Source: Gammaproteobacteria bacterium
GTDB taxonomy: Bacteria; Pseudomonadota; Gammaproteobacteria; Ga0077536
NCBI GenBank assembly: GCA_009692265.1
Contig: SHZM01000001.1
Location: forward strand, 19,363-83,362
Direction: 5' to 3'
Length of the DNA: 64,000 nucleotides
The notes below the pieces were generated by a model that saw only the letters and a program-made list of their open reading frames with translations, searched no databases and had not been told where the DNA came from. Numbering within the stretch: position 1 is the stretch's first letter; every line of letters begins with the position of its first letter. Below, one piece after another: positions 3,589 through 40,956 of this stretch. The position numbers and the translations under genes are program-made.

Positions 3589-4428
3589 ATGGACAGCAAC
3601 GTGATCACGGACAAGACCATTGGCCAATACCTGATAGATCGCCTGTGCGAAGCCGGTGCCCGTCACTGCTTCGGGGTACCGGGTGATTACATCCTCGGGT
3701 TTTATGATCTGATGGTCCACAGCCAGCTCACCCATATTGACACGACCCGTGAAGACACCGCCGCGTTTGCCGCCGATGGTTATGCCCGGTTATAAGGCTT
3801 GGGCGCGCTCGCCGTAACCTATGGAGTCGGCGCGTTGAACGTCGTGAACGCAGTCGCGGGTGCCTACGCCGAGAATTCGCCGGTGGTAGTGATCAGCGGT
3901 GCGCCCGGCGTTAGCGAAGCCGCCAACGATCCATTACTGCATCATCGCTTCGGGCCGTTCTCATTCCAGCGCGAAATTTTTCAACGCATTACCTGTGCCC
4001 AAGCAGTCTTGGACGATCCGTTGATCGCATTCCGACAAATCGATCGCACCTTGGCCGCCGCCCGGCGGCAGCGATTGCCGGTTTATATTGAGTTACCGCG
4101 TGATCAGGTCCGTGTAGCGGGCTACCCGGTACCGGTGGAGGCCGAGGTGGAGGCGGGTTCCGATCCGGCGACGTTGCGCGAAGCAGTGGATGAATGCTGT
4201 GCCCTATTGGAGAAATGCCAAACGCCGGTCCTGATTGCGGGCCAGGAACTGCATCGCCGCGGCTTGCAAGACGCCCTCATTGAGTTCGTCACGCGCACCA
4301 ACATTCCAACTGCCGCAACCCTGACCGGGAAATCGGTCATTGGCGAACGACATCCGTCGTACCTTGGGGTATATGAAGGCGCGATGAGTTCCGCCGCATC
4401 GCCAAAAAGCTGTTGCTTGATCTCGTAG
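3589..4428 (+). pseudogene. Indolepyruvate/phenylpyruvate decarboxylase family (TPP enzyme) remnant. It has an in-frame TAA at 3793..3795 and is truncated after about 277 of the roughly 550 expected codons.
   Basis: The translation matches the IPDC/PDC N-terminal and middle domains (FGVPGDY...ADGYARL*GLGALAVTYGVGALN...HHRFGP). The stop sits where the family has K/N. Homology ends near 4395-4400, where the antisense of the repeat-protein gene begins. Confidence 0.7.
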
Positions 4429-7334
4429 GTGTTGAAACCAGGTGTGCCGCTAACAGTGTTGTAGTCCGCGTACACCACCACGTAATTGCCCTGGCCGAGA
4501 TCCGCGATTGCGGGGCGATACTCGGTGCCATCAGTGCTCGACAGCAGCTTGCGTTGGCCATCGATCGCGACTCCGGCCGAGGTGTGTTCACGGATGTAGA
4601 CATCCGTGGTCGTGCCGACGTTTGGGATCACATCGTAGTTGTCGTTGTACCAGGTCACGACGAAGCCGCCGGTGGAGAGCGCCGTCACGTCTGGCTGGTA
4701 TTGACCGCCGATGGTCGACTCGTTGACCAGGAACTCGCCGCCGAGCTTGGCACCCGCCGCGGTGAAGCGCTGCCCGATTACCGCCTGACCGCTGTTGTCG
4801 CTGGCATCATTACCATCCGACGGCCATACCACCACGAACGTGCCGTCCGCCAGCACCGCGACGTTCGACACGTACTCGCCATTGTTCGCAATACTCTGGT
4901 TTCCCACCGTGGTGGTGTTGACCAGGAAGGTGTCGCCAAAGGTCCCACCCGCCGCGTTGAAGATCCGGCCATACACGCCGTGGCCCGCGCCGTCGTTACC
5001 GCCCTCGTCGGACCATACGATGATGAGATTGCCGTTCGCGAACGCCGCTATATCCGGGGTGTACTGGTTGCCGGTTTGGGGGTTTACCGTGCCGAGAATA
5101 TTGCTAATCCGGGTCTCGACCGTGACCACGGCCCCCGCGTTGTCGTAACGCTTCAAGTAGATGTCGTGGCTGCTACCGTCCGGATTCGTGTTTGACGACC
5201 ACACCGCCGCAAAGCCGCCCGCGTAGCCCGCGACATTGGTGTGGAACTGGTTATTGCTGGTGAACGTGTTGACCAGGAAGTTCCCACCCTGCGCCACGCC
5301 GCTCGCGTTGTAGCGCTGACCATACGCGCCGTAGGACGAACCATCGTTCAGATTGTCCTGTCACGCGACGACATAGCCGCCATCGGAGAGGCTCGCGAGC
5401 TGCGGGTAGTTCTGAATTCCGTTGGTCAGACTATTGACCCGGAATTCAGCGCCTAGCGCGAGACCCTGCGCGGTAAAACGCTGGACGTAGACGCCTTCCT
5501 GATTGCCGTCCTGGTCATCCGAATTCCAGGCCACGACATAACTGCCATCCGTTAAGGTTGCCACCGTCGGATAGGTCTGTTCAGCTGGCGTGTACGTGGT
5601 GACCTGGCTCTCACCGTAGACTACCGGTGCGCCATCCAGTTCCTTGGTGATATTCACCGTCAAGGTGCTGGCATCGCTGACTCCGCCGTCGCCGTCGCTG
5701 ACCCGTAGGCCCAGGGTCCGGCTAGCCAGCGGACTGGACGATGAATTGCCATAACCCAGGCGTTGCAGCGGGGCCTCGACCGCATCCACCGTCGCATTCG
5801 CATTCAACGTGATCGTGAGGCTCGCGCCGTTGACCCCGCCGGCGATTGTGCCGATCGTCGTACCGCCAAAACTGACATTCGCGCCCGCCACCCCGATCTG
5901 GCCAAAGCCGTTGCCCTGATGGACTACGCCGAGTTGGTCGTCGGTATTATTCGCGCCCTGTACGAAGAACAACTGCACCTGGCCGCCGTCGAAGTTCGCC
6001 GAATCCAGATCCGCGACGCTGACCGCGGAATCGAGCACTTGCAGGCTCGCGTTGACCAGGTTCTCGCCGAAGGTGACCACCCCGGCGAAGTCCCCGACGT
6101 CTGGGTTGGCTTGACGGGGTAGTTCGGCGGCAGTGCCGAACAATTGCTGGAAGATGCCTGCCGCAGAGCCGTCCTGCGGTTGATCAGAGCGCCACACCAC
6201 CACATAGTTATCGCTGCCGATGTGCGCGATCGCGGGCTCGTATTGAGCCCCGGAGGGCGTCCCCGTATCGGCCTTAAGTTGGCCACCCAGCGCGTTCCCG
6301 CTGGCGTCATATTCGCGAACGTAGACGTCGGCGGTGGTGCCTACCCCTTGAACCACGCCGTAGTTATCGTTGTACCAGGTGACAACAAAGCCGCCATTCG
6401 CCAAGGCTTCCACATCGGGCTGGTACTGGCCGCCGGTCGTCGATTCATTGACCCGAAATTCGCCGCCATCTAGCGCACCGGCTGCCGTATAACGCTGACC
6501 GTAGACCCCGGCACTGGACCCGTCTTGGTTATCGGAGCGCCAGACCACGACAAATCCGCCACCGGTGAGAAGCGCGACCTTCGGTTCGTACTGGGGACCC
6601 GTGACGAATGTATTGACGCGGAATTCGTTGACCCCGCCGGTGAGGATGGGCGTCCCCGTGGCGTCATAGCGCTGGGCGTAGACGCCATCGGTCCCGCTAT
6701 CTTGGGACTGCGATCGCCACACCACCACAAAGCTGCCGTCTGCGGCGGTTGCTACATCGGATTCAGTTTGGTAGTTGGCGAGGGTGGTATTAACCCGGAA
6801 TTCGTTGAGGCCATTGGTGAGCACCTGGACACCGGCATTGGTGTAGCGCTGCGCGTAAATGCCGTAGGAGCTGCTGGCCGCGTCCTGGAAGGAACTCCAG
6901 GTAACGATGAAGCCGCCGTTGTACGCACTGATGGCCGGTTCGTACTGGGTACTGGCGGTGATGGTGTTGACTCTGAACTGACTGCCCTGGGGCAGCGCGT
7001 TGGCGTCGTAGGCTTGCGCGTAGACCCCGTAGGAACTGCCGTCATTCGCGACTTGATCGGTCCACGTAATGACGAAGCCGCCGTTTGAGCGCCCGGTGAT
7101 AGTCGGTAGATACTGCGTGCCACCTGCAGTGCTATTAACCCGAAACTCCGGGCCGGTGGCGATGCCGCTCACCGTAAAGCGCTGCGCGTAGATGCCGTAG
7201 CTACCATCCGGATCCTGAACCTGGGAGATCCAGGTCACCACATACCCGCCCCCTGAGAGCGCCGCAACCGCGGGGTCATATTGGTTGCTATTGAAATAGG
7301 TATTGACTTGGTCTTCGTTATAGACGGCAACCAT
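4122..7334 (-). pseudogene. Giant tandem-repeat (about 47-aa repeats, likely extracellular) protein gene. It is interrupted by an in-frame TGA at 5361..5363, and its 3' end is lost: the frame reads into antisense of the IPDC-like remnant below about 4400.
   Basis: ORFs 5361..7334 and 4122..5297 are in the same frame (7334-5297 = 2037 = 679x3). The TGA replaces the Trp of the repeat consensus GG(F/Y)VV(T/V/A)W. About 15 repeats fit EFRVN.T..GxQ..P.V..L..GGFVVxWxS...DGS..GVYAQRY. The final stretch below 4400 has no repeat signature. Confidence 0.7.
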
Positions 7335-7859
7335 GGCGATCTCCCTGAGTGTTAAAACGGCGTGCTGCGTTCAATCCGGCGCAGGCCAGTATGCAAACGG
7401 TTGGTGAAGGTGGCGTGACGAGCTTACGGGAGACATGCGCGCCCGTGACGGTAATGGGTCTCGTTTGCGACCGTGCCTGAAAGTTGGATAGCCTTAGTGA
7501 TCGAGTACGAGTCACTATTCCTCCAAATTATTGGTTCTTCGATTCCTCCGGAATGTTCACGCGAATAGCATTCCGGGCAGCAGCGAACGCCGCGAAGGCG
7601 GAGTTCCGCGATAACCTATGCAAGACCAACGCCAGTCCGAGCGGGACGGAATTTTTCACCGAAAATCATAGGGTTAGCGAGAGCCCGAAATTTGTTTCAA
7701 AACGAGTTGTAAAAATCATGGACACGGAAGCCTGCGGGCGGGTTTCATCGGTGATCGCAAGCGACGAGTTTTTTTAGACGCTTCAAAGGGTTGGTGAAAG
7801 ATGCTCGGCAATAGCGGGCATATTACCGAGTCTATGATTTTTACAAGGATGTGGGTGAA

Positions 7860-7905
7860 TCCATCCTCCCCCTTTGCGAAGGGGGACTGAGGGGGATTTT
7901 CTTTC
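7860..7905 (-). repeat. REP/MITE-like GC-rich hairpin element (copy A, reverse orientation)
   Basis: Its reverse complement AAGAAAATCCCCCTCAGTCCCCCTTCGCAAAGGGGGAGGA shares a 25-nt identical core with copies at 10894 and 19254. It lies immediately 3' of the M14 gene that ends at 7907. Confidence 0.75.
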
Positions 7906-7906
7906 G

Positions 7907-9325
7907 TTACTCCACCTCGTCATAAATAAACAATGGGCCTTCGAGCAAACGACCGAAGGGGCGATAGCGAAACACGCTGCTCGCGGCACGCGGATCCAGC
8001 AGGAGTGGAATTATCCTTCGGCTCGGTTGCGCCAGAGGTATTCGCAGGGTACCTGGGTCGAGCACAACCTTGCCTGCCCACGGTTGCCAAGGCGAAGCGG
8101 CCTCCTCGGGTGAAATCCCTTTTGGGAACACTCGTGTCTGCACGCTTCGTCGCTCCGCGCGCGAAATAGTTTCGAATTTGATCCCGTGTCGTGCCAACAC
8201 CGCGCCGAACAAATTCACATGCGCGTTGATGACATACGCAGGCGGCAGGACAACCAGATCTTCGATCACGCAGGCACGGTGATCGGCAAACTGCCTCTCG
8301 ACTAACTCTCCAGTCGCATGCCGACGTAGCGGTATGCTGAGTTCCGGCATGTTTACGTTCGGCACGAAACGCGCGTTTAACGGGAGTTCACTTGGCACCT
8401 CACCGGCCGCGAGCTTAAGGACTTCTCTGATTTGCACTGCGCGTTCACTCACACAGGCCAAAAACACCTGCAAACACAGACGCTGCTTATCGACTCGCAC
8501 GCCGATATTGCGGTAGGTCGGATAGTGGCCCGCTTTGGGTTCCATCGGCGTTTCGAGCAGGATAGTCAGCGGCCCGCGGATCCCCGCTTTATTGCGGAAC
8601 TTGCGGATCGTGAAGCCGCCATGGGTGAGCGGTTGAGTGAGCGAGGTAATCTCACGGATATAACGCTGGGCGCGTAAGCCGCGCTGCGTAACACCTGCGA
8701 TTAAGGCCGGAAGTAACGTGCTTTCCAGATAGCGGCGGTTCACCGCCGGAATTGCCGGTGTATTCGCCACATCGAACTGCGCTTCGAAATCCGTCAAGTA
8801 ACCTTCGCGACCTAAAGTCTTGCTCTTGTAACTCGCCGACTCATGCGCATCGAGGATGACATCGGGCGCGAAATCGATCACCGCCGCATCGAGTGCGCAA
8901 CTCTCGGGCTGCGTCAGTAAGACATAGTCGCGATTGAGATTGACGTCGTTGCCGTTCTTGCTTGAATCGAGATCACGGCCGTCGGGGTTCGCGTTGGGAA
9001 TGAAGATCAGTTCCAGATCCTCAAGCAGTTCGCGCCGCTCGCCGAGCAGCACGTCGCGTGCGAGAAATAATAGCGCTTCACAGCCCGCCGCTTCCGAAGC
9101 GCCATGTTGCGAGCCGACCAGCATGACTCGCAGTTTCGCGGTGCGAAGCGGCTGCGCGCAAATCAAGGCCTGGAGTGGACGCCCCTGGGCTGAGCGCCCA
9201 AGGGTTTGCAGACGGGCAACCTTCGGCGCAAGCGCCGCGAGTTGTGCCAAATAGGCCGCGACGTCAGCCGAACTCGAATACGCCTGGAAACGCTGCGTTT
9301 CGAGCGGCGTCGGCGGTAGCTTCAC
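7907..9325 (-). CDS. M14 family zinc metallocarboxypeptidase (paralog 1, no signal peptide)
   Basis: 472 aa. M14 motifs present: GSQHGASEAAG (HxxE zinc site), IPNANPDGR, NLNRDY, DAHESAS, LETPME. The GTG start at 9325 overlaps the stop of the upstream paralog (GTGA). Confidence 0.75.
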   Translation of the reverse strand: MKLPPTPLETQRFQAYSSSADVAAYLAQLAALAPKVARLQTLGRSAQGRPLQALICAQPLRTAKLRVMLVGSQHGASEAAGCEALLFLARDVLLGERRELLEDLELIFIPNANPDGRDLDSSKNGNDVNLNRDYVLLTQPESCALDAAVIDFAPDVILDAHESASYKSKTLGREGYLTDFEAQFDVANTPAIPAVNRRYLESTLLPALIAGVTQRGLRAQRYIREITSLTQPLTHGGFTIRKFRNKAGIRGPLTILLETPMEPKAGHYPTYRNIGVRVDKQRLCLQVFLACVSERAVQIREVLKLAAGEVPSELPLNARFVPNVNMPELSIPLRRHATGELVERQFADHRACVIEDLVVLPPAYVINAHVNLFGAVLARHGIKFETISRAERRSVQTRVFPKGISPEEAASPWQPWAGKVVLDPGTLRIPLAQPSRRIIPLLLDPRAASSVFRYRPFGRLLEGPLFIYDEVE

Positions 9326-10884
9326 CGGAGGCGACGCGTCGCGCCTTTGTATGTGCGATAGACGAAGAAATCTTCCTCCGGTTGCACCAGCGCGGAATAC
9401 TCTGGGTAGCGAAAGATGCTGCTGGTCGAGCGCGGATCCAGCAATAACGCCGCGTAGCGTCCGTTGGGTTGCGTGAGATCGATGAACACACCGCCGGGTT
9501 CGATCTCGAGTGCGCGACGGTTTTCTGAAGTCATCTTCACTTGGTCGAGAATATTTGGCCGGCTCTCAAAACGCGCGGCGATGACGTCCGCGCTGGTGGG
9601 CTGGGTCAGACTCCAAAAACTAATGCCATGTCGTTCGAGCACATCGCGCAGCTTACCCACGTGTTGAGTGATGACCAGCATCGGCGGATAGGGGATCCGG
9701 TCGCCGGTCACCAGCTTTCGATGATCACGAAATTCAATCGACTCCAATTCGCGGGTATCGAGGCGGCGCATCGGGATTGAGACCTTTGGGTGCTCAGGAT
9801 CGACCACATAACCCGCGAACAAGGTAAGCGGCTCTTTATGCAAACCGCTGCGTGCCTCAACCACGCGGGTTGCGAGGATCGCCCGCCCCTCGTGCATCGA
9901 TTTAAGGAAGGTGCGAATGCACAGCAGCTGCCGCTCGACCCGCACCACGATATTGCGATACGTCGGGTAGGTGTCTTCGCGTGAATCGAGTTTGGTCTCC
10001 ACCAGAAACGAGATCGCGCCGCTCATGCCCGCGGTATTGCGGAAATTGCGCAGGGTCAGACCGCCGTGGGTGATCGGCTGTTTAAGGCTGATGATTTCGC
10101 CGATATAGCGATGCGCGGGCAATCCACCAGCGGTGACCCGTGCAATGAGTTCGGGCAACAAGGTCTGTAGCGCGTAGTCGCGCACCACGGCTGGCACGGA
10201 CGGGTTATTGCTGAATTCAAACTGCGCATCGAAATCGGTTAGGTAACCATCGCGCGCCAGAGTCTTGCGTTTCAGGACTGCGGATTCGTGCGAGTCCAGC
10301 ACGGCAGCGGGTCGATATTTTTCGAGCATGTCCTTGAGGATGCGGGTCTCCGGTTGCGACAGCAGGACAAAGTCGGTGTTGATATTGATGCCGTTGGCGT
10401 TCGCGCGCTTCTTATTATCGCGACCGTCGGGGTTCGCGTTCGGAATCAAAATCACATCGACATCGTCCAACAGCGGACGTAAGTCGCCCGCCACGAGTTC
10501 GCGCGCGATCACTAACAACGCTTCGCCACCTGCCGGCTCGGCGGCACCATGTTGTGAGCCGATCACCACGAGCTTCGGGCGTTTAAGTTCTTTCGATCGC
10601 TTTGTCTTTAAGACCAGGGCCTCGAGCACGCGTCCCTGTACTGACTTGCCGAGGTCGTCTTTACGCGCGAGGGTGGGGTAGTGCGCGACGATGGTGTCCA
10701 AGTACGTGGTGATCTCGGCGGAGGTGCTGATTCGAGAGTTTGCGTTCAGCTCGAGCGGCGTGAGCAGCGGGGGTGCGGCGTTCAGCTGTGAGGTGAACAG
10801 GAGTACCGTGACTAACGAAGGTAGGGTGCCGATTCTTGTGAGGTTGATCATGGTCGGTGTTTTACTCGAATTAATGGGTTTCAT
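9322..10884 (-). CDS. M14 family zinc metallocarboxypeptidase (paralog 2, with signal peptide)
   Basis: Paralog of the previous gene with the same motifs (GSQHGAAEPAGGEA, IPNANPDGRD, NTDFV, DSHESA, FLVETK). The N-terminus MKPINSSKTPTMINLTRIGTLPSLVTVLLFTSQLNAAP is signal-like. An alternative start at 10851 (MINLTR) is possible. The longer track ORF reaching 10968 reads through the REP element and was rejected. Confidence 0.7.
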   Translation of the reverse strand: MKPINSSKTPTMINLTRIGTLPSLVTVLLFTSQLNAAPPLLTPLELNANSRISTSAEITTYLDTIVAHYPTLARKDDLGKSVQGRVLEALVLKTKRSKELKRPKLVVIGSQHGAAEPAGGEALLVIARELVAGDLRPLLDDVDVILIPNANPDGRDNKKRANANGININTDFVLLSQPETRILKDMLEKYRPAAVLDSHESAVLKRKTLARDGYLTDFDAQFEFSNNPSVPAVVRDYALQTLLPELIARVTAGGLPAHRYIGEIISLKQPITHGGLTLRNFRNTAGMSGAISFLVETKLDSREDTYPTYRNIVVRVERQLLCIRTFLKSMHEGRAILATRVVEARSGLHKEPLTLFAGYVVDPEHPKVSIPMRRLDTRELESIEFRDHRKLVTGDRIPYPPMLVITQHVGKLRDVLERHGISFWSLTQPTSADVIAARFESRPNILDQVKMTSENRRALEIEPGGVFIDLTQPNGRYAALLLDPRSTSSIFRYPEYSALVQPEEDFFVYRTYKGATRRLR

Positions 10885-10893
10885 CGACCGAAT

Positions 10894-10962
10894 AAGAAAA
10901 TCCCCCTCAGTCCCCCTTTGACAAAGGGGTCGGCGCGCAGCGGCGGGGGACTTAGCGCGCAG
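10894..10962 (+). repeat. REP/MITE-like element (copy B, forward orientation)
   Basis: AAGAAAATCCCCCTCAGTCCCCCTTTGACAAAGGGGTCGGCGCGCAGCGGCGGGGGAC. It carries the same core as copies A and C. It sits between the bclA stop and the M14 paralog-2 start. Confidence 0.75.
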
Positions 10963-10967
10963 ATTCA

Positions 10968-12542
10968 CTACCCCGCCCGCAATCTGAACCGCTGAATCTT
11001 GCCGGTCGCCGTTTTCGGAAGCTCTGGGACAAATTCAAACCAGCGCGGGTACTTGTGTGGCGCAAGCTGCGTTTTCACATGCGCCTTCAATGCTGCTTCC
11101 AATTTCGGCACTCCGTGGCCCTTGCTCTTCAATACGACAAATGCTTTCGGTTTGATCAATCCCTCCGCGTCCGCCATGCCGACCACCGCCGCTTCGAGCA
11201 CGGCTGGGTGTGACATCAGCGCGGCTTCGACTTCGAACGGTGAAACGTATTGGCCGCTGACTTTGAGCATGTCGTCAGAGCGCCCACCGTAGGTGTAGTA
11301 GCCCTCCGCGTCGACCGTGTATTTATCACCCGCGCGGGTCCATGCGCCCATAAAGGTTTCACGCGATTTCTCGCGACTGTTCCAATACATCACGGCCGTG
11401 CTCGGACCGTTGATCTGGAGTTCGCCCAGACCAGGTCCCGTAATTTCTTGGCCTTGCTCATCGCACAGCCGGATTTGATAACCCGGGACGGGTTTACCCG
11501 TCGTACCGTAACGCACGTCGCCAGGCCGGTTCGATAAAAAAATATGCAACATCTCGGTCGAACCAATGCCGTCGAGGATGTCCACTCCAAAGTGGGCGGT
11601 AAAGCGTCGCCCGACGTCGGCGGGCAGCGCTTCACCCGCTGAGGTGCAGATCCGTAACGCGACTGTCGAGCGCTCGGGTAACCTTGGGCTCGCGAGCATC
11701 GCGGCATAGAGCGTCGGTACCCCGTAGAAAATCGACGGCTGCAAGTCGACCAGGCGTTTGAACACCGCCTCCGGGGTTGGCCGCTCGGCCATCAAGATCG
11801 CAGTGGCGCCAACCGCCAACGGGAACGTCAGGCTATTGCCTAGGCCATAGGCGAAAAATAATTTCGCGGCCGAGAACACCACATCCTGTTCAGTAATCCC
11901 GAGAATAGGACGTGCATACAGCTCAGCGGTGTGAAGCAAGCTCGAATGCACATGCACCGTACCCTTCGGGGGGCCGGTCGAACCGGAGGAGTACAGCCAG
12001 AAGCACACCTCACCCGCCGTGGTGTCGACCGGCTCGGCGGTGGGCTCGGCGGCCGCCATTAACTGGCCTAACACGGGATATCCATGTGCACCGGCCGTGG
12101 CAATAACATGCTTCAGCGATCGTGCTTCCGCGAGCGCCGGTGCAAACGTTTCCAGCAACGGTGCGGAAACGAACAGGGCTTTCGCGCAACTGTCGTCGAG
12201 CATGAAGCGGTAATCATCGCTGGTTAGCAGGGTATTCACCGCGATCGGTACGATCCCGGCTTTGATAGCGCCCAGGAACACGCTTGGAAAATCGATCGTG
12301 TCGTGTAGCGCGACCATAACCCGATCTTCGGGTTCAAGACCAAGCGCGCGCAGCGCATTGGCGGCACGATTCACGCGCGCGACTAGTTCGCCGTAAGAAT
12401 ACCGGCCGGCGTCATCGATATATGCGATTTTTTCGGCGCGGCCCGCCCGTAGGTTTCGTTCCAGGAGGTCATGCGCGGCGTTATAGCGACGCGGAATTTC
12501 AATCAACGGTGGCGAGACCGTGTGGTCGGCGCGAGACAACAT
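10968..12542 (-). CDS. bclA: Benzoate-CoA ligase family (aromatic acid:CoA ligase)
   Basis: 524 aa adenylate-forming enzyme with YSSGSTGPPKG, GTTGKP and a C-terminal ...KTATGKIQR. Length and motifs match the benzoate/4-hydroxybenzoate-CoA ligase family. It neighbours boxR/boxC/boxB. Confidence 0.8.
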   Translation of the reverse strand: MLSRADHTVSPPLIEIPRRYNAAHDLLERNLRAGRAEKIAYIDDAGRYSYGELVARVNRAANALRALGLEPEDRVMVALHDTIDFPSVFLGAIKAGIVPIAVNTLLTSDDYRFMLDDSCAKALFVSAPLLETFAPALAEARSLKHVIATAGAHGYPVLGQLMAAAEPTAEPVDTTAGEVCFWLYSSGSTGPPKGTVHVHSSLLHTAELYARPILGITEQDVVFSAAKLFFAYGLGNSLTFPLAVGATAILMAERPTPEAVFKRLVDLQPSIFYGVPTLYAAMLASPRLPERSTVALRICTSAGEALPADVGRRFTAHFGVDILDGIGSTEMLHIFLSNRPGDVRYGTTGKPVPGYQIRLCDEQGQEITGPGLGELQINGPSTAVMYWNSREKSRETFMGAWTRAGDKYTVDAEGYYTYGGRSDDMLKVSGQYVSPFEVEAALMSHPAVLEAAVVGMADAEGLIKPKAFVVLKSKGHGVPKLEAALKAHVKTQLAPHKYPRWFEFVPELPKTATGKIQRFRLRAG

Positions 12543-12559: not shown

Positions 12560-13033
12560 TTAAAGCCGACGTAGCACTGCGGTCCAGACGTTCGCAACTC
12601 CGGGCAGGGTCGCGATGTCGGTACTACCGCTTAGCTCCGAGACCTCAGGCTGCCCATACCGACCCTGGTCCAGGCGATAACGAGTGACGCTGCGATCGGT
12701 GGGGTGCACCAGCCAATATTCGCGCACGCCGTGGCCTTCGTAGAGTGCGCGCTTGACGACCTGATCATGCGCGGCGGTGAACGGCGAGAGGATCTCCACA
12801 ATCCAATCCGATTGCACGACGGTATCGATTTCGTCGTCTGCTTCGTGGTGGCGAGGAAGTCGAATATCTAGCGGTGCGACGAATAAGCGGCTCGGCCCAT
12901 CACGTAATGCTTGATCAAGCTGACCAGCCATCGCGTAGGCGATCCCATCAATCAATTCGTAGCGGCGATTATCAGACCATGTGCAGTAATCGCCGTAGGT
13001 ATGTCGTTCATCATCGCGACGTGCAAGGCCCAT
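12560..13033 (-). CDS. Uma2 family (DUF820) restriction-endonuclease-fold protein
   Basis: The core YGDY..W...RRYELIDG...PLDIRL...DWIVEILSP...D..VK...Y...GV.EYWLV is typical of Uma2. The chosen start is the ATG at 13033; the track ORF extends to 13129. Some usual segments look shortened, so it may be degenerate. Confidence 0.55.
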   Translation of the reverse strand: MGLARRDDERHTYGDYCTWSDNRRYELIDGIAYAMAGQLDQALRDGPSRLFVAPLDIRLPRHHEADDEIDTVVQSDWIVEILSPFTAAHDQVVKRALYEGHGVREYWLVHPTDRSVTRYRLDQGRYGQPEVSELSGSTDIATLPGVANVWTAVLRRL

Positions 13034-13074
13034 ACTCGGCTCCGTATTCGTGTTTGCAAGTGCCCTAGTCAATC

Positions 13075-13551
13075 TTAAGCTGCGACGGCGTGCTCCGCAC
13101 GAACCAGCGCAAACCACGGGCCAATCCATGCTGCCGCAAATTCTTCCGGCATCAAACCCGCGGAAGCATCGTGTTCCAGCACTTCGCCGACTCTGCGCGC
13201 ACCTAACTTGGTCAGGATCTGATCGAAGCGACGGCCACCGAAGCAGTAAGTCTGCGCGTGCGATGAGTCCCCCAGCGAGACCAGGCCGTAGCGGATCCCA
13301 GTGAGATTGGGTCTGTCCTTGACTAGCGACTCGTAGAGCTTCTTGGCGTTGGCCGGCACATCGCCGTAGCCATAGGTGGACATACAGACTAAGTAGATCG
13401 CCGCTGGCTCGAACACCTTCGCGTCGAGCTCGTCCATTTGCAGGATCTCGCCTTGCGCACCCGCTTGTTGGAGATTGAAGTGGGCTTCTTCGGCGACGTA
13501 TTGGGTGTTGCCAGTGGTCGTGCCGACTAGGATCCGGACGGTAATCGCCAT
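13075..13551 (-). CDS. Flavodoxin, MioC-like FMN-binding protein
   Basis: ATG at 13551 gives MAITVRILVGTTTGNTQYVAEEA...STYGYGDVP.N, which aligns with E. coli MioC. The longer track ORF reaching 13635 was rejected because it reads into an AT-rich intergenic region. Confidence 0.75.
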   Translation of the reverse strand: MAITVRILVGTTTGNTQYVAEEAHFNLQQAGAQGEILQMDELDAKVFEPAAIYLVCMSTYGYGDVPANAKKLYESLVKDRPNLTGIRYGLVSLGDSSHAQTYCFGGRRFDQILTKLGARRVGEVLEHDASAGLMPEEFAAAWIGPWFALVRAEHAVAA

Positions 13552-13593
13552 GGGCTGTTGCTCCGAAAGGGTTGAAACGAAGGTAGAAAGTGA

Positions 13594-13637
13594 ATTATAT
13601 TTCATAAAATATTCTTCACAAGTATTATATTTCATAA
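13594..13637. promoter_or_regulatory. Candidate operator/promoter in the divergent flavodoxin-boxR intergenic region. Two perfect 14-bp direct repeats ATTATATTTCATAA (13594..13607 and 13624..13637) are spaced 30 bp apart.
   Basis: Seen directly in the sequence. This 93-bp AT-rich spacer between the divergent starts at 13551 and 13645 is the only AT-rich spot in the area. Confidence 0.4.
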
Positions 13638-13644
13638 GACTCCG

Positions 13645-14556
13645 ATGCCGCTTTCAGCCCAACCCAAGACTCTTGGTGCCGACTCCCTAGCGGAAGACGA
13701 CGCGGCGGCGCTCGCAGGTCTGGGCACTCGGATCCGTCAAGCCCGGGCGCGCCGTGGCATGACTCGCCGTGCATTAGCCCTGCATTCCGAGGTTTCAGAG
13801 CGCTACCTCGCGCACTTGGAAGGGGGTGAGGGAAATGCCTCGTTTCTGGTGCTGCGGCGAGTGGCGTTGGCGTTGAAATTGCCGCTTGCGGAGCTGGTCG
13901 ACGAGCGGCCCCCGGCCTCGATCGAATGGGCGCTGCTCGAACAGCTGCTAAAAGATCAACCAACCGCGAGCTTGCAGCGCATTCGCCATCAATTGCAGCG
14001 CGAAGTCGTTCATTCCGAGCACCTACGGGGTGCGCGGGTGGCGTTAATTGGCCTGCGCGGCGCGGGCAAATCGACCTTAGGCGCGCAAGTCGCAGCACAT
14101 CTTGATCGGCCGTTTATCGAACTCGATCGCGAAATAGAAGTAAGCGCCGGAGCGTCGTTAGAGGAGATTTTTTTGCTGTACGGGCAAGCCGGTTATCGTC
14201 GGCACGAGATGCGCTGCCTGCAGCGACTGATCGAAGAGACTCCACGCTGCGTGATCGCGACCGGCGGGAGCATTGTCTCGGAACCCGCAACCTATTCGCT
14301 GTTGCTCACGGCGTGCACGACCGTGTGGCTGAAAGCCTCCCCCGAAGAACATATGGCGCGCGTGGTCGCTCAAGGCGATCTGCGACCGATGAGTGGGAAC
14401 GCGGAGGCGATGGACGATCTGCGGCACATTTTGCTCGAACGCGCGGACCGTTACGCCCAGGCGGATTTCACCTTGGATACCACCGGCAAATCTCTTACTA
14501 CCACTTTCACTGCGTTGCTCGATCTGCTCAGCACGCCCCCCATCGCCAAGGAGTGA
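13645..14556 (+). CDS. boxR: BoxR/BzdR-type transcriptional regulator (N-terminal HTH-XRE fused to a shikimate-kinase-like effector domain)
   Basis: 303 aa. N-terminal XRE HTH (IRQARARRGMTRRALA...SERYLAHLEGG). C-terminal shikimate-kinase fold with P-loop (LIGLRGAGKSTLG...IATGGSIV). This architecture is specific to BzdR/BoxR, and the gene sits directly upstream of boxC-boxB. Confidence 0.8.
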   Translation: MPLSAQPKTLGADSLAEDDAAALAGLGTRIRQARARRGMTRRALALHSEVSERYLAHLEGGEGNASFLVLRRVALALKLPLAELVDERPPASIEWALLEQLLKDQPTASLQRIRHQLQREVVHSEHLRGARVALIGLRGAGKSTLGAQVAAHLDRPFIELDREIEVSAGASLEEIFLLYGQAGYRRHEMRCLQRLIEETPRCVIATGGSIVSEPATYSLLLTACTTVWLKASPEEHMARVVAQGDLRPMSGNAEAMDDLRHILLERADRYAQADFTLDTTGKSLTTTFTALLDLLSTPPIAKE

Positions 14557-37162: not shown

Positions 37163-38833
37163 TTACTTGGCGTCGAGCTGCGCCTTTAGCAGCTCGCCAA
37201 GTTTAATGGTCGCGGTCTCGTTTTCCGCACTGTACTCTTGCAGCATCGTTTGTTCATCTTCGCTTTCCTTCGCTTTGATGGACAAGTTGATCACTCGGCG
37301 CTTGCGGTCGACGCCGATGATCATCGCTTCGATCGGCTCGTTTTCACGCAAAAGCTTGCGGGCATCATCGACCTGATCGTGCGAGATTTCACTGGCGCGG
37401 ATCACACCCTCTATGCCGTCGCCCAGATTCACGGTCGCCGATTTCGCATCAACGCTGATAATTGTGCCGTTGACGATCGTACCCTTGCCGCTGTCGGCGA
37501 GGTAGGACGAGAAGGGATCCTGCGCAAGCTGCTTGATCCCCAGGGAAATGCGTTCGCGTTCGGCATCCACGGCCAACACGACGGTATCGATCTCATCGCC
37601 CTTCTTGAAGTTACGCACTGCTTCTTCGCCAGGGATGTCCCACGAGAGGTCTGAAAGATGGACTAAACCATCGATTCCGCCGTCCAACCCTATGAAAATC
37701 CCGAAATCGGTAATCGATTTGATCACGCCGCTGACGCGATCGTTCTTGTTATGAGTAGCTGCGAACTCTTCCCAGGGATTGACGCGGCATTGCTTCATGC
37801 CGAGCGAGATACGACGACGCTCCTCGTCGATATCCAGCACCATAATTTCGACTTCTTGACCCAGGTGCACCACTTTCGAGGGGTGCACATTCTTATTCGT
37901 CCAGTCCATTTCGGAGACGTGGACGAGGCCTTCAACCCCTACTTCGATTTCCACGAAGCAGCCATAGTCAGCAATATTCGTAACGGTGCCGAACAGACGT
38001 GTGTGCTCCGGATAGCGTCGGGAAATGTCGACCCACGGATCCTCGCCTAACTGTTTCAGGCCGAGCGACACGCGAGTACGTTCGCGGTCGAACTTGAGTA
38101 CCTTGACAGTGATTTCTTCGCCGATGTTGACGACTTCCGAGGGATGCTTGACTCGCTTCCAGGCCATGTCGGTGATGTGCAGCAAACCGTCGATGCCGCC
38201 CAAATCGATGAACGCACCGTAGTCAGTAAGGTTCTTGACCAAGCCCTTAGTGACGGCACCTTCCTTAAGACTTTCGAACAACGCTTCGCGTTCCGCCGAA
38301 TTCTCGCTTTCGACTACCGCGCGGCGTGAGACCACCACGTTATTACGTTTGCGGTCGACTTTGACGACCTTGAAATCGAGGGGCTTGCCTTCGAGATAAC
38401 TGGTATCGCGCACTGGCCGCACATCGACCAATGAACCGGGAAGGAAGGCTCGTATGGTGGCGATGTCGACCGTGAAGCCACCTTTGACTTTATCGCTGAT
38501 AATGCCGGTGACAGTTTGGCCGGCTTCGCAAGCCTTTTCTAATTCATCCCAGGCTTTAGCACGCTTGGCTTTATCCCGCGAGAGGCGGGTCTCACCGAAA
38601 CCGTCTTCGACGGAATCGAGCGCGACGTCGACTAGATCGCCGACCGCAACTTCTATCTCACCTTTGGCATTTTTGAACTGCGCCGCGTCGATGACCCCTT
38701 CGGATTTTAGCCCCGCGCTGACGACCACGCGCTCAGAGGTTACTTCGACGACCGTGGCTTTGATAATCGTGCCCGGTCGCATTTTGATCTCGACCTGGCT
38801 GCTTTCGAATAATTCGGCAAAACTTTCCGTCAT
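37163..38833 (-). CDS. rpsA: 30S ribosomal protein S1
   Basis: Six S1 domains. The N-terminus [10 protein letters not shown] matches E. coli S1 when started at the ATG at 38833; the track ORF begins at a GTG two codons upstream. Confidence 0.95.
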
Positions 38834-38952
38834 AGTCACTATAGTTATCTCGTCTGAAGCAGAGTTCTTGCTGATTAGGCGCCGCGAGCGACGTGGGCAG
38901 ATCAGCGACCCTGGCTCAGGGTTAAAGGGTTAAAATTAAGACCCCCGGTCCA

Positions 38953-39645: not shown

Positions 39646-40956
39646 TCAGGCGGGATGAATTCGCATGCCGGCAGCCCGCGCGAGGTCGACAAAGGTCGGA
39701 AAACTCGTCGCGATCGTGGCCCAGCCGTGAATCGTCAGCGGCTGAGTGGCCCGCAAACTCGCGATCGCGAAAGACATGGCAATACGATGATCACCATGGG
39801 CTTCGATGGTGGCGCCGCCGAGTGGCCCGCCGATGATTTCCATACCGTCTGGTAGTGTCGTGACCTGCGCCCCCATTGCGCGAAGGCCCGTGGCCATGGT
39901 CTCGATGCGATCGCTTTCTTTATGGCGCAGCTCTTCGGCGCCGGTCACTCGCGTAAGTCCTTTCGCACAGGCCGCGGCCACGAACAACACCGGGAATTCG
40001 TCGATCGCCAGCGGCACCAACGTCCGCGGAACCTCGATCCCATGCAAGGCGGACGCGCGGACGTGTAAGTCAGCGACCGGTTCACCGCCGATTTCACGGG
40101 TGTTTCGAACGCGGATATCTGCCCCCATCAACCGCAGAATATCGAGCACACCGGTGCGCGTTGGATTGATCCCGACTGCCTCCATTACCACTTCCGTGGC
40201 GGCGGCCAGCGCCGCACCGACCAAGAAAAACGCCGCTGAAGAAATATCCGCCGGAACAACGATGGGCGCCGCGGTTAAACGTTGGCCCCCATCGACACTG
40301 ATTTGATTACCGACTCGCTCAACCCGCACGCCGAAGCCGGTCAACATCCGCTCGGTGTGGTCCCGCGTTGGCGCAGGCTCGGTCACCTTGGTGGTCCCGG
40401 TGGCAAACAATCCAGCGAGCAGGATCGCTGACTTCACCTGGGCACTGGCCACTGGCAGCGCGTAGTCAATTGCGTGCAACGCCGCGCCGGCGGCGAGCTT
40501 GATCGGCGGATTCCCGTTAGCTTGCGTGGTAATCCGGGCACCCATTTGTTCTAGCGGATCGGTGACCCGCCGCATCGGTCGCCGCCGCAACGAATCGTCT
40601 CCAGTGAGTATTGCCTTAAGGCCCGCGCCCGCGACAATCCCTGACAACAAACGCATGGAGGTTCCCGAATTGCCGCAATCGAGCACAGTACTCGGCGTAA
40701 TCAGGCCGTCGCGACCACGGCCTTGTATCCGCAACAAGCGCCCTTGATCTAATTCCTCGATCGCGACCCCCATCGCCCGAAATGCAGCAATCGTCGCGCG
40801 CACGTCTTCGCCCATGAGGCAATCGCGAACCTCGGTAACACCATCGGCCAAGGCACCGAACATCACTGCGCGATGTGAGATCGATTTATCACCCGGAACC
40901 CGCAATCGTCCGCACAACGTGCCACCGGGTTCAAGGCGCAAGGTGTCGGGGATCAT
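39646..40956 (-). CDS. aroA: 3-phosphoshikimate 1-carboxyvinyltransferase
   Basis: 436 aa EPSP synthase (LPGDKSISHR...). Confidence 0.93.
   Translation of the reverse strand: MIPDTLRLEPGGTLCGRLRVPGDKSISHRAVMFGALADGVTEVRDCLMGEDVRATIAAFRAMGVAIEELDQGRLLRIQGRGRDGLITPSTVLDCGNSGTSMRLLSGIVAGAGLKAILTGDDSLRRRPMRRVTDPLEQMGARITTQANGNPPIKLAAGAALHAIDYALPVASAQVKSAILLAGLFATGTTKVTEPAPTRDHTERMLTGFGVRVERVGNQISVDGGQRLTAAPIVVPADISSAAFFLVGAALAAATEVVMEAVGINPTRTGVLDILRLMGADIRVRNTREIGGEPVADLHVRASALHGIEVPRTLVPLAIDEFPVLFVAAACAKGLTRVTGAEELRHKESDRIETMATGLRAMGAQVTTLPDGMEIIGGPLGGATIEAHGDHRIAMSFAIASLRATQPLTIHGWATIATSFPTFVDLARAAGMRIHPA

Follow-up and report, generated by a model that had tools for sequence, protein, structure and literature searches.

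Giant RTX-type adhesins exported by type I secretion (LapA, MpIBP, FrhA, and SiiE-like proteins) are the closest described systems to the repeat gene analyzed here. The gene lies on the minus strand, at 4386-7334, of a 64,000-nucleotide stretch (the window, to which all nucleotide positions refer) of contig SHZM01000001.1, from a metagenome-assembled genome (MAG) of a gammaproteobacterium (GCA_009692265.1). Relatives of the window protein resembled those adhesins in their length (4,800-7,900 amino acids), the lack of an N-terminal signal peptide, the long arrays of immunoglobulin (Ig)-, cadherin-, and PKD-like domains, and, in full-length relatives, a C-terminal RTX-type β-roll. They differed in their N-terminal two-thirds, predicted to be built from eight seven-bladed propellers with Ig-like domains between them, whereas the RTX adhesins described so far have, to our knowledge, Ig-like extender repeats and no propeller arrays in that region. 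The family also differed in having a short RTX region, which the Pfam model missed, and in the absence of adjacent ATP-binding cassette (ABC) transporter or membrane-fusion genes, and the window copy lacked the C-terminal part. The feature in the window is very probably what remains, after decay, of the 5' end of a gene that encoded a giant modular extracellular protein; 983 of roughly 5,000-6,000 codons survive.

Three other described groups were comparable in fold or in sequence motif. CylK (7fh6), a Friedel-Crafts alkylating enzyme built on a seven-bladed β-propeller, was the best structural match to the first propeller and likewise joins an RTX-like Ca-binding domain to a propeller. However, CylK shared only 14% identity with that propeller, was not found in PDB by the family profile, and, at about 650 amino acids, is an enzyme with one propeller and not a tandem module of a giant protein. 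The propellers of Asp-box/BNR sialidases and of glycoside hydrolase families GH43 and GH93 shared the β-propeller fold, with faint blade-level similarity to GH43, but have five or six blades as opposed to the seven found here, and the family profile gave no significant sequence match to them. The SxDxGxTW Asp-box motif was not seen in the blade consensus. The third group comprised the NCBIfam models NF053835 (PDIAV motif-containing lipoprotein) and NF038383 (LIC12048 family lipoprotein), which provided the sole recurring similarity to a curated family and share a Y.PD(I/V)A motif present in the blades. NF053835 matched 19 of 29 propeller blocks (best E 5e-9), all below threshold; the second block of the window scored 25.6 bits, far below the curated cut-off of 90. 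The window protein also lacked a lipoprotein signal, and both lipoprotein families are themselves uncharacterized.

The remnant comprised 983 codons in one frame with a single internal TGA. It started with ATG at 7334-7332, behind a Shine-Dalgarno-like sequence (Table 1); a search of 7250-7950 revealed no sigma-70-like promoter. The formal open reading frame (ORF) of 657 amino acids (7334-5361), ended by the TGA, corresponds to EXR86_00135, which GenBank lists as a hypothetical protein encoded on a 116-kb contig of a Gammaproteobacteria MAG. Past the TGA, 325 further codons of clear repeat sequence followed in the unchanged frame. An initial annotation, made by reading the sequence, had correctly described repeat coding as filling the surviving 3 kb or so, but had overlooked the stop that limits the annotated ORF to 657 amino acids. 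Homologs P0002-P0012 were collinear with the remnant at 53-60% identity across 100% of its length, and the G+C content was 58-63% throughout with no compositional break. The N-terminus (MVAVYNEDQVNTY) led straight into the first blade. Neither a Sec signal peptide (judged by eye) nor a lipobox was visible there, and at least five homologs (P0002, P0003, P0007, P0009, and P0012) began at the same residue and also had no signal peptide, in agreement with the initial annotation.

Anchoring on F(R/L)VN and alignment delimited 14 repeats in two blocks of seven, at amino acids 6-403 and 574-980. The repeats were spaced by 54-60 amino acids (about 165-175 bp); about 47 of the roughly 56 amino acids of a blade formed the conserved core. 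The initial annotation had given at least 15 repeats with a period of 47 amino acids (about 141 bp); that length describes the conserved core only. The motif it had read, EFRVN.T..G.Q..P.V..L..GGFVV.W.S...DGS..GVYAQRY, is the consensus of the repeats, which in full was.EF.VNT.T.G.Q Y.P.VA.L..GGFVVVW.S...D GS..GVY.QRY.AAG...G. A hidden Markov model (HMM) built solely from repeats 8-14 made exactly seven matches in amino acids 1-405, scoring 39-79 bits, whereas the best score among 500 shuffles of the same region was 7.4 bits. The periodicity on which the initial annotation had staked its reading is thus far beyond chance.

Mean identity among the blades was 37%. Because each blade of the first block resembled its counterpart seven positions further on (30-72% identity), whole seven-blade blocks must have been duplicated. 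Tandem Repeats Finder saw no tandem array in the DNA; the repeats exist at the protein level only and are therefore old and diverged. The two blocks were separated by a non-repetitive insert, as originally described, with a length of about 175 rather than about 150 amino acids. The QQLFGTAAEL motif at the end of the first block (amino acids 396-405) returned as QQLFGDAAEL (amino acids 974-983, nucleotides 4386-4415) exactly where homology stopped, confirming the recurrence that had been noted at the truncation point. The QQ(L/I)FG part was kept across homologs.

An AlphaFold2 model of the first block, computed from an alignment of amino acids 1-405 with 28 homologous seven-repeat blocks (alignment A1, headed by P0012), was all-β with seven groups of 3-4 strands (predicted local distance difference test score, pLDDT, 89; predicted template modeling score, pTM, 0.91). 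In a Foldseek search against PDB, the top match was CylK (E 7e-12, query TM 0.72) and the second was the rhamnose-glucuronate lyase FoRham1, like CylK a seven-bladed β-propeller. Sialidases and GH93 enzymes followed lower in the list (E 1e-9 to 1e-7, TM 0.45-0.57), and identity to these enzyme neighbors was 9-15%. The first block is accordingly predicted to be a seven-bladed β-propeller. The number of repeats equaled the number of blades, with exactly seven repeat matches per block in the window. A β-roll or β-helix fold for the repeats was rejected on the model together with the Foldseek matches; of the two folds between which the initial annotation had left the choice, β-propeller or β-roll, the prediction gave the propeller. 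The insert (amino acids about 406-575), modeled from 36 sequences (alignment A2), gave a confident β-sandwich with two short helices (pLDDT 90, pTM 0.82) and is putatively Ig/cadherin-like.

TABLE 1. Features of the repeat-gene remnant and its convergent neighbor, in window positions (aa, amino acids; HMM, hidden Markov model; TPP, thiamine pyrophosphate).
Feature	Position	Strand	Basis
Whole coding remnant, covering the first two modules of a giant modular protein	4386..7334	-	Translation; homolog collinearity
Shine-Dalgarno-like GGGAGA, 5 nt upstream of ATG	7340..7345	-	Read from sequence
Propeller A, seven blades (predicted): aa 6-61, 63-117, 118-170, 177-229, 236-289, 291-350, 351-403	6126..7334	-	Repeat HMM; AlphaFold2; Foldseek
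QQLFGTAAEL motif, end of blade 7 and linker to insert domain	6120..6149	-	Alignment
Insert domain, aa 406-575, predicted β-sandwich, putatively Ig/cadherin-like, with two short helices	5610..6119	-	AlphaFold2 model
Propeller B, seven blades (predicted): aa 574-628, 630-683, 684-736, 750-800, 802-865, 866-923, 926-980; QQLFGDAAEL end	4386..5615	-	Repeat HMM; blade identity
In-frame TGA at conserved Trp of blade 9, GGYVVA*QDN vs GGFVITWQD in homologs	5361..5363	-	Translation; homolog alignment
Junction where homology of both convergent genes ends without spacer, most likely a deletion scar	4386..4389	.	Codon-by-codon reading
TPP-dependent decarboxylase-like pseudogene, convergent neighbor, N domain and half M domain	3589..4389	+	Pfam TPP_enzyme_N and TPP_enzyme_M on two ORF pieces

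The closest relatives (53-60% identity) came from Zoogloea, Thauera, Accumulibacter, Aquincola, and other Rhodocyclales and Burkholderiales. Blade and insert HMMs mapped on nine loci (L001-L009) placed exactly seven blades between nearly all successive inserts. The module order was three times [seven blades + Ig], once [seven blades + Ig + Ig], three times [seven blades + Ig], and a final seven blades, giving eight propellers. It was clearest in five loci (Roseateles hydrophilus UHG3 [L007; NZ_JAPPUY010000001.1, ORF start near position 1,513,860], Pelomonas margarita LKC17W, strain AAP65, a Rubrivivax MAG, and a Thauera MAG), whose uninterrupted ORFs of >4,200-5,060 amino acids ran off the available DNA. 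PKD repeats followed the eighth propeller in the closest relatives. When the PKD tail was used to search for their 3' end, only fragments and unrelated PKD proteins were returned, and all related loci ran off their ends. Six distant relatives with the same module order were seen whole (P0243, P0249, P0257, P0259, P0261, and P0269; 4,811-6,779 amino acids, 33-37% identity). The two that were scanned, P0259 and the tail of P0243, contained 10-12 Big_9/Cadherin_4/Cadherin_5 domains, with a Calx-beta domain in P0259.

Other genomic settings of family members were also observed. The closest long relative seen whole was P0311 (5,471 amino acids, 45% identity over amino acids 5-981), in which four propeller modules preceded, as read by eye, YD/RHS-type repeats and a motif like the RHS core; polymorphic-toxin-like proteins may therefore also begin with propeller modules. 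At another locus (L016 1-418, beside P0119), a propeller-family protein was encoded immediately downstream of a 3,212-amino-acid TcA-like ABC-toxin gene (ABC_toxin_N, Neuraminidase, TcA_TcB_BD). The complete 4,811-amino-acid P0259 (L012 24535-34436) was encoded about 4.4 kb upstream of aroA-cmk...rpsA. In the window, aroA (39646-40956) and rpsA (37163-38839) differed in their relative order and were 30 kb distant from the remnant, and the likeness to L012 is probably coincidental.

All six full-length distant relatives ended in a conserved domain of about 116 amino acids (alignment A3). The A3 profile matched the RTX β-roll C-termini of the AlgE4 and AlgE6 R-modules, serralysin, the alkaline protease AprA, Pseudomonas lipase, and CyaA at E 1e-10 to 1e-7, with a weak match to the RTX-like domain of CylK (E 0.006). 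In these relatives the RTX region was short and contained one or two degenerate nonapeptides. Type I substrates of the protease/lipase class have, at the extreme C-terminus, a motif in which hydrophobic residues come after an acidic one, and the full-length relatives mostly ended in this way (...DIDFV, ...LDFI, ...LVFV, ...NYFV, and ...DYLV). These similarities support type I secretion at the family level. The window copy ended at codon 983 and contained neither C-terminal GGxGxD β-roll repeats nor a secretion signal, consistent with the initial description of a giant exported repeat protein of which only the front is left and the C-terminal signal is lost. The accompanying suggestion of an RTX-type protein exported by type I secretion held for the RTX-type end, seen in the full-length distant relatives. 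Neighboring genes lent it no support: uninterrupted and full-length homologs were found, but type I secretion genes adjoined neither the window gene nor its relatives at any locus inspected. Conserved synteny with such genes was rejected, as none was present at any locus inspected.

From these features, a course from gene to surface can be proposed. Module 1 consists of a predicted seven-bladed propeller followed by a putative Ig/cadherin-like sandwich of about 175 amino acids, and module 2 keeps the propeller only. The intact protein would start without a signal peptide, would probably leave the cell unfolded, C-terminus leading, by way of a type I secretion system, and would fold outside the cell after export. 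The propeller array would then act as a multivalent binding, adhesin-like surface.

Several points weigh against this interpretation. The Pfam HemolysinCabind (RTX) model did not score A3-type tails. The RTX-type end was documented only in relatives at 33-37% identity and was not reached in the 53-60% set. ABC transporter, membrane-fusion, and TolC genes did not adjoin the gene in the window, upstream in L004, L007, and L008, or around P0259 and P0257; adjacency of ABC transporter and membrane-fusion genes to type I substrates is common, not obligatory. The literature search found no experiment or paper on the function of the propeller. Further, the best structural neighbors were enzymes, and the source is a MAG, so that both the stop and the junction rest on the assembly.

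The enzyme neighbors raise the alternative that the propeller is a catalytic and not a binding module, the giant proteins being secreted multi-catalytic enzymes such as polysaccharide lyases, hydrolases, or alkylating enzymes. We consider this unlikely. A catalytic role retains a small probability because the nearest structures (CylK, the rhamnose-glucuronate lyase, GH93 enzymes, and sialidases) are enzymes, and the faint blade-level similarity to GH43 points the same way. Against it, the low identity to those enzymes was accompanied by no significant match of the family profile to any of them. The conserved residues (Q, W, S, QD, G, and QR) recurred in every blade and are therefore structural in pattern rather than indicative of one active site. 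In addition, eight near-equivalent copies beside Ig, PKD, and cadherin domains form an overall layout that is that of adhesins. A multivalent binding role for the array thus appears the more plausible.

The inactivation of the window copy was evident at two positions. The internal TGA replaced a conserved tryptophan codon and is one transition from TGG. TGA ended 6 of 13 Pfam-supported ORFs, and these ORFs contained 88 TGG codons and no in-frame TGA; the TGA is therefore a genuine stop here, and recoding was rejected, TGA being an ordinary stop in this genome. The second position was the junction: after AAEL, homologs continued with PRQ.NP.L.DF into the next Ig-like domain, and the window read the antisense of another gene. 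That convergent gene, for a TPP-dependent decarboxylase-like protein, carried its own in-frame TAA at 3796-3798 and ended with ...GVYEGAMS at 4387-4389, after half of its TPP_enzyme_M domain. Since the convergent genes abut and each has an additional disabling mutation, a single deletion of both 3' ends followed by decay is the simplest reading. A TGG-to-TGA nonsense change ends translation at codon 658, all sequence beyond codon 983, including any secretion domain, is missing, and the cut at 4386-4389 also removed the 3' half of the TPP-enzyme gene. The window copy is thus probably a non-functional pseudogene that would at most make a 657-amino-acid fragment, one that could not be exported.

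The main rival to the pseudogene reading lies in the assembly itself: the giant gene would be intact in the real genome, and metagenome assembly would have introduced both the TGA and the junction at 4386 in error. We regard this as quite unlikely. The source being a MAG would fit such errors, and assembled genes of this family are commonly cut off by a contig end or frameshifted. However, the junction lay in unique sequence (none of the 12-mers of 4340-4440 recurred elsewhere in the window), the contig continued for 4.3 kb beyond it with coherent genes, and no frameshift occurred over the 2,949 bp of the repeat gene. Moreover, each of the abutting genes had its own internal stop, as after real inactivation. 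That the truncated gene still functions, through readthrough or recoding of the TGA as tryptophan or selenocysteine (a product of 983 amino acids or longer) or as a 657-amino-acid fragment with a new role, is very improbable: the start codon and the Shine-Dalgarno-like site are intact and the frame is otherwise open, but TGA serves as a stop in confident genes and never occurs in frame within them, the frame beyond 4386 is the antisense of another gene, and without the C-terminal secretion domain the product would not be exportable by the probable route of its relatives.

The locus itself, read as the decayed front of a giant gene, is an ordinary pseudogene, and its modest interest lies in the very large uncurated propeller family to which it belongs. 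Scans of the window protein against Pfam-A and NCBIfam gave no significant match for the propeller or the insert, only noise. In Pfam scans of 12 homologs, the repeat region likewise collected noise (CopC, GH43, fn3, and FtsQ), usually with zero significant stretches; in P0024 the summed GH43 score (33.8 bits) was marginally above the cut-off of 32.2, and one NHL match had an E of 0.45. None of the named Pfam propeller families (WD40, Kelch, NHL, PQQ, FG-GAP, SBBP, BNR, RCC1, and others) exceeded its gathering score in the window protein, and none lasted in the 12 homologs. The recurring precomputed Pfam identifiers, PF24051 (DUF7355), PF22847 (Glyco_hydro_43_rel), and PF26862 (Phage_T4_Y10B), were all flagged 'faint'. 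Sequence and profile searches of PDB found no solved relative of the propeller or the insert, and literature searches (motif strings, PDIAV, LIC12048, Pfam identifiers, and propeller with RTX and adhesin) found no description of the repeat. The initial annotation had been unable to assign the repeat to a named domain, and these searches bear it out. Membership of GH43, CopC, or CylK was rejected, as sequence matches were sub-threshold or noise and CylK was unseen by the family profile.

The A1 profile found 64,036 cluster representatives at E <= 1e-3 and 22,649 at E <= 1e-30, with proteins of up to 7,923 amino acids among its matches. Partner domains elsewhere in the family included canonical RTX repeats, type IX secretion system (T9SS) sorting tails, dockerins, and cadherin domains; these pairings suggest an extracellular location in general. 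The same module was also present in T9SS, dockerin, and RHS-toxin contexts of other phyla. At two loci (L001 5208-21693 and L011 1-14185), the giant gene was broken up by frameshifts into many ORFs, perhaps as a result of indel errors in sequencing. Database 'proteins' of the family are often fragments, and member counts are therefore inflated by pieces. We propose only tentatively, and with less than even confidence, that the blade, and the module of seven-bladed propeller and Ig-like domain, may define a very large, undescribed, and uncurated extracellular family (at least 64,000 clusters at 50% identity, without a Pfam model or solved structure), in which the eight-propeller arrays may make up a separate class of giant binding proteins, or possibly enzymes, that environmental Proteobacteria export by type I secretion.

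Some further genes of the window were recorded. Directly upstream of the repeat gene, two tandem genes for M14 zinc-carboxypeptidase-like proteins (7907-9325 and 9322-10968, minus strand) overlapped at stop and start; each matched the Pfam model over its N-terminal half only. A gene for a putative restriction endonuclease of the Uma2 family (12560-13129, minus strand) was located beside several short overlapping ORFs (13075-14098).

For this genome, the finding is of little consequence: the dead remnant and the TPP-enzyme pseudogene would together record one deletion event. At the family level, a propeller repeat occurs in tens of thousands of clusters without a significant match in the curated libraries searched here, a solved structure, or a known ligand. 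It builds proteins of 5,000-8,000 amino acids in well-studied wastewater and freshwater genera such as Zoogloea, Thauera, Accumulibacter, Roseateles, and Rubrivivax. A curated model, together with biochemistry on a single propeller, would annotate very many giant surface proteins now listed as hypothetical, and these giant propeller proteins may bear on floc and biofilm formation.

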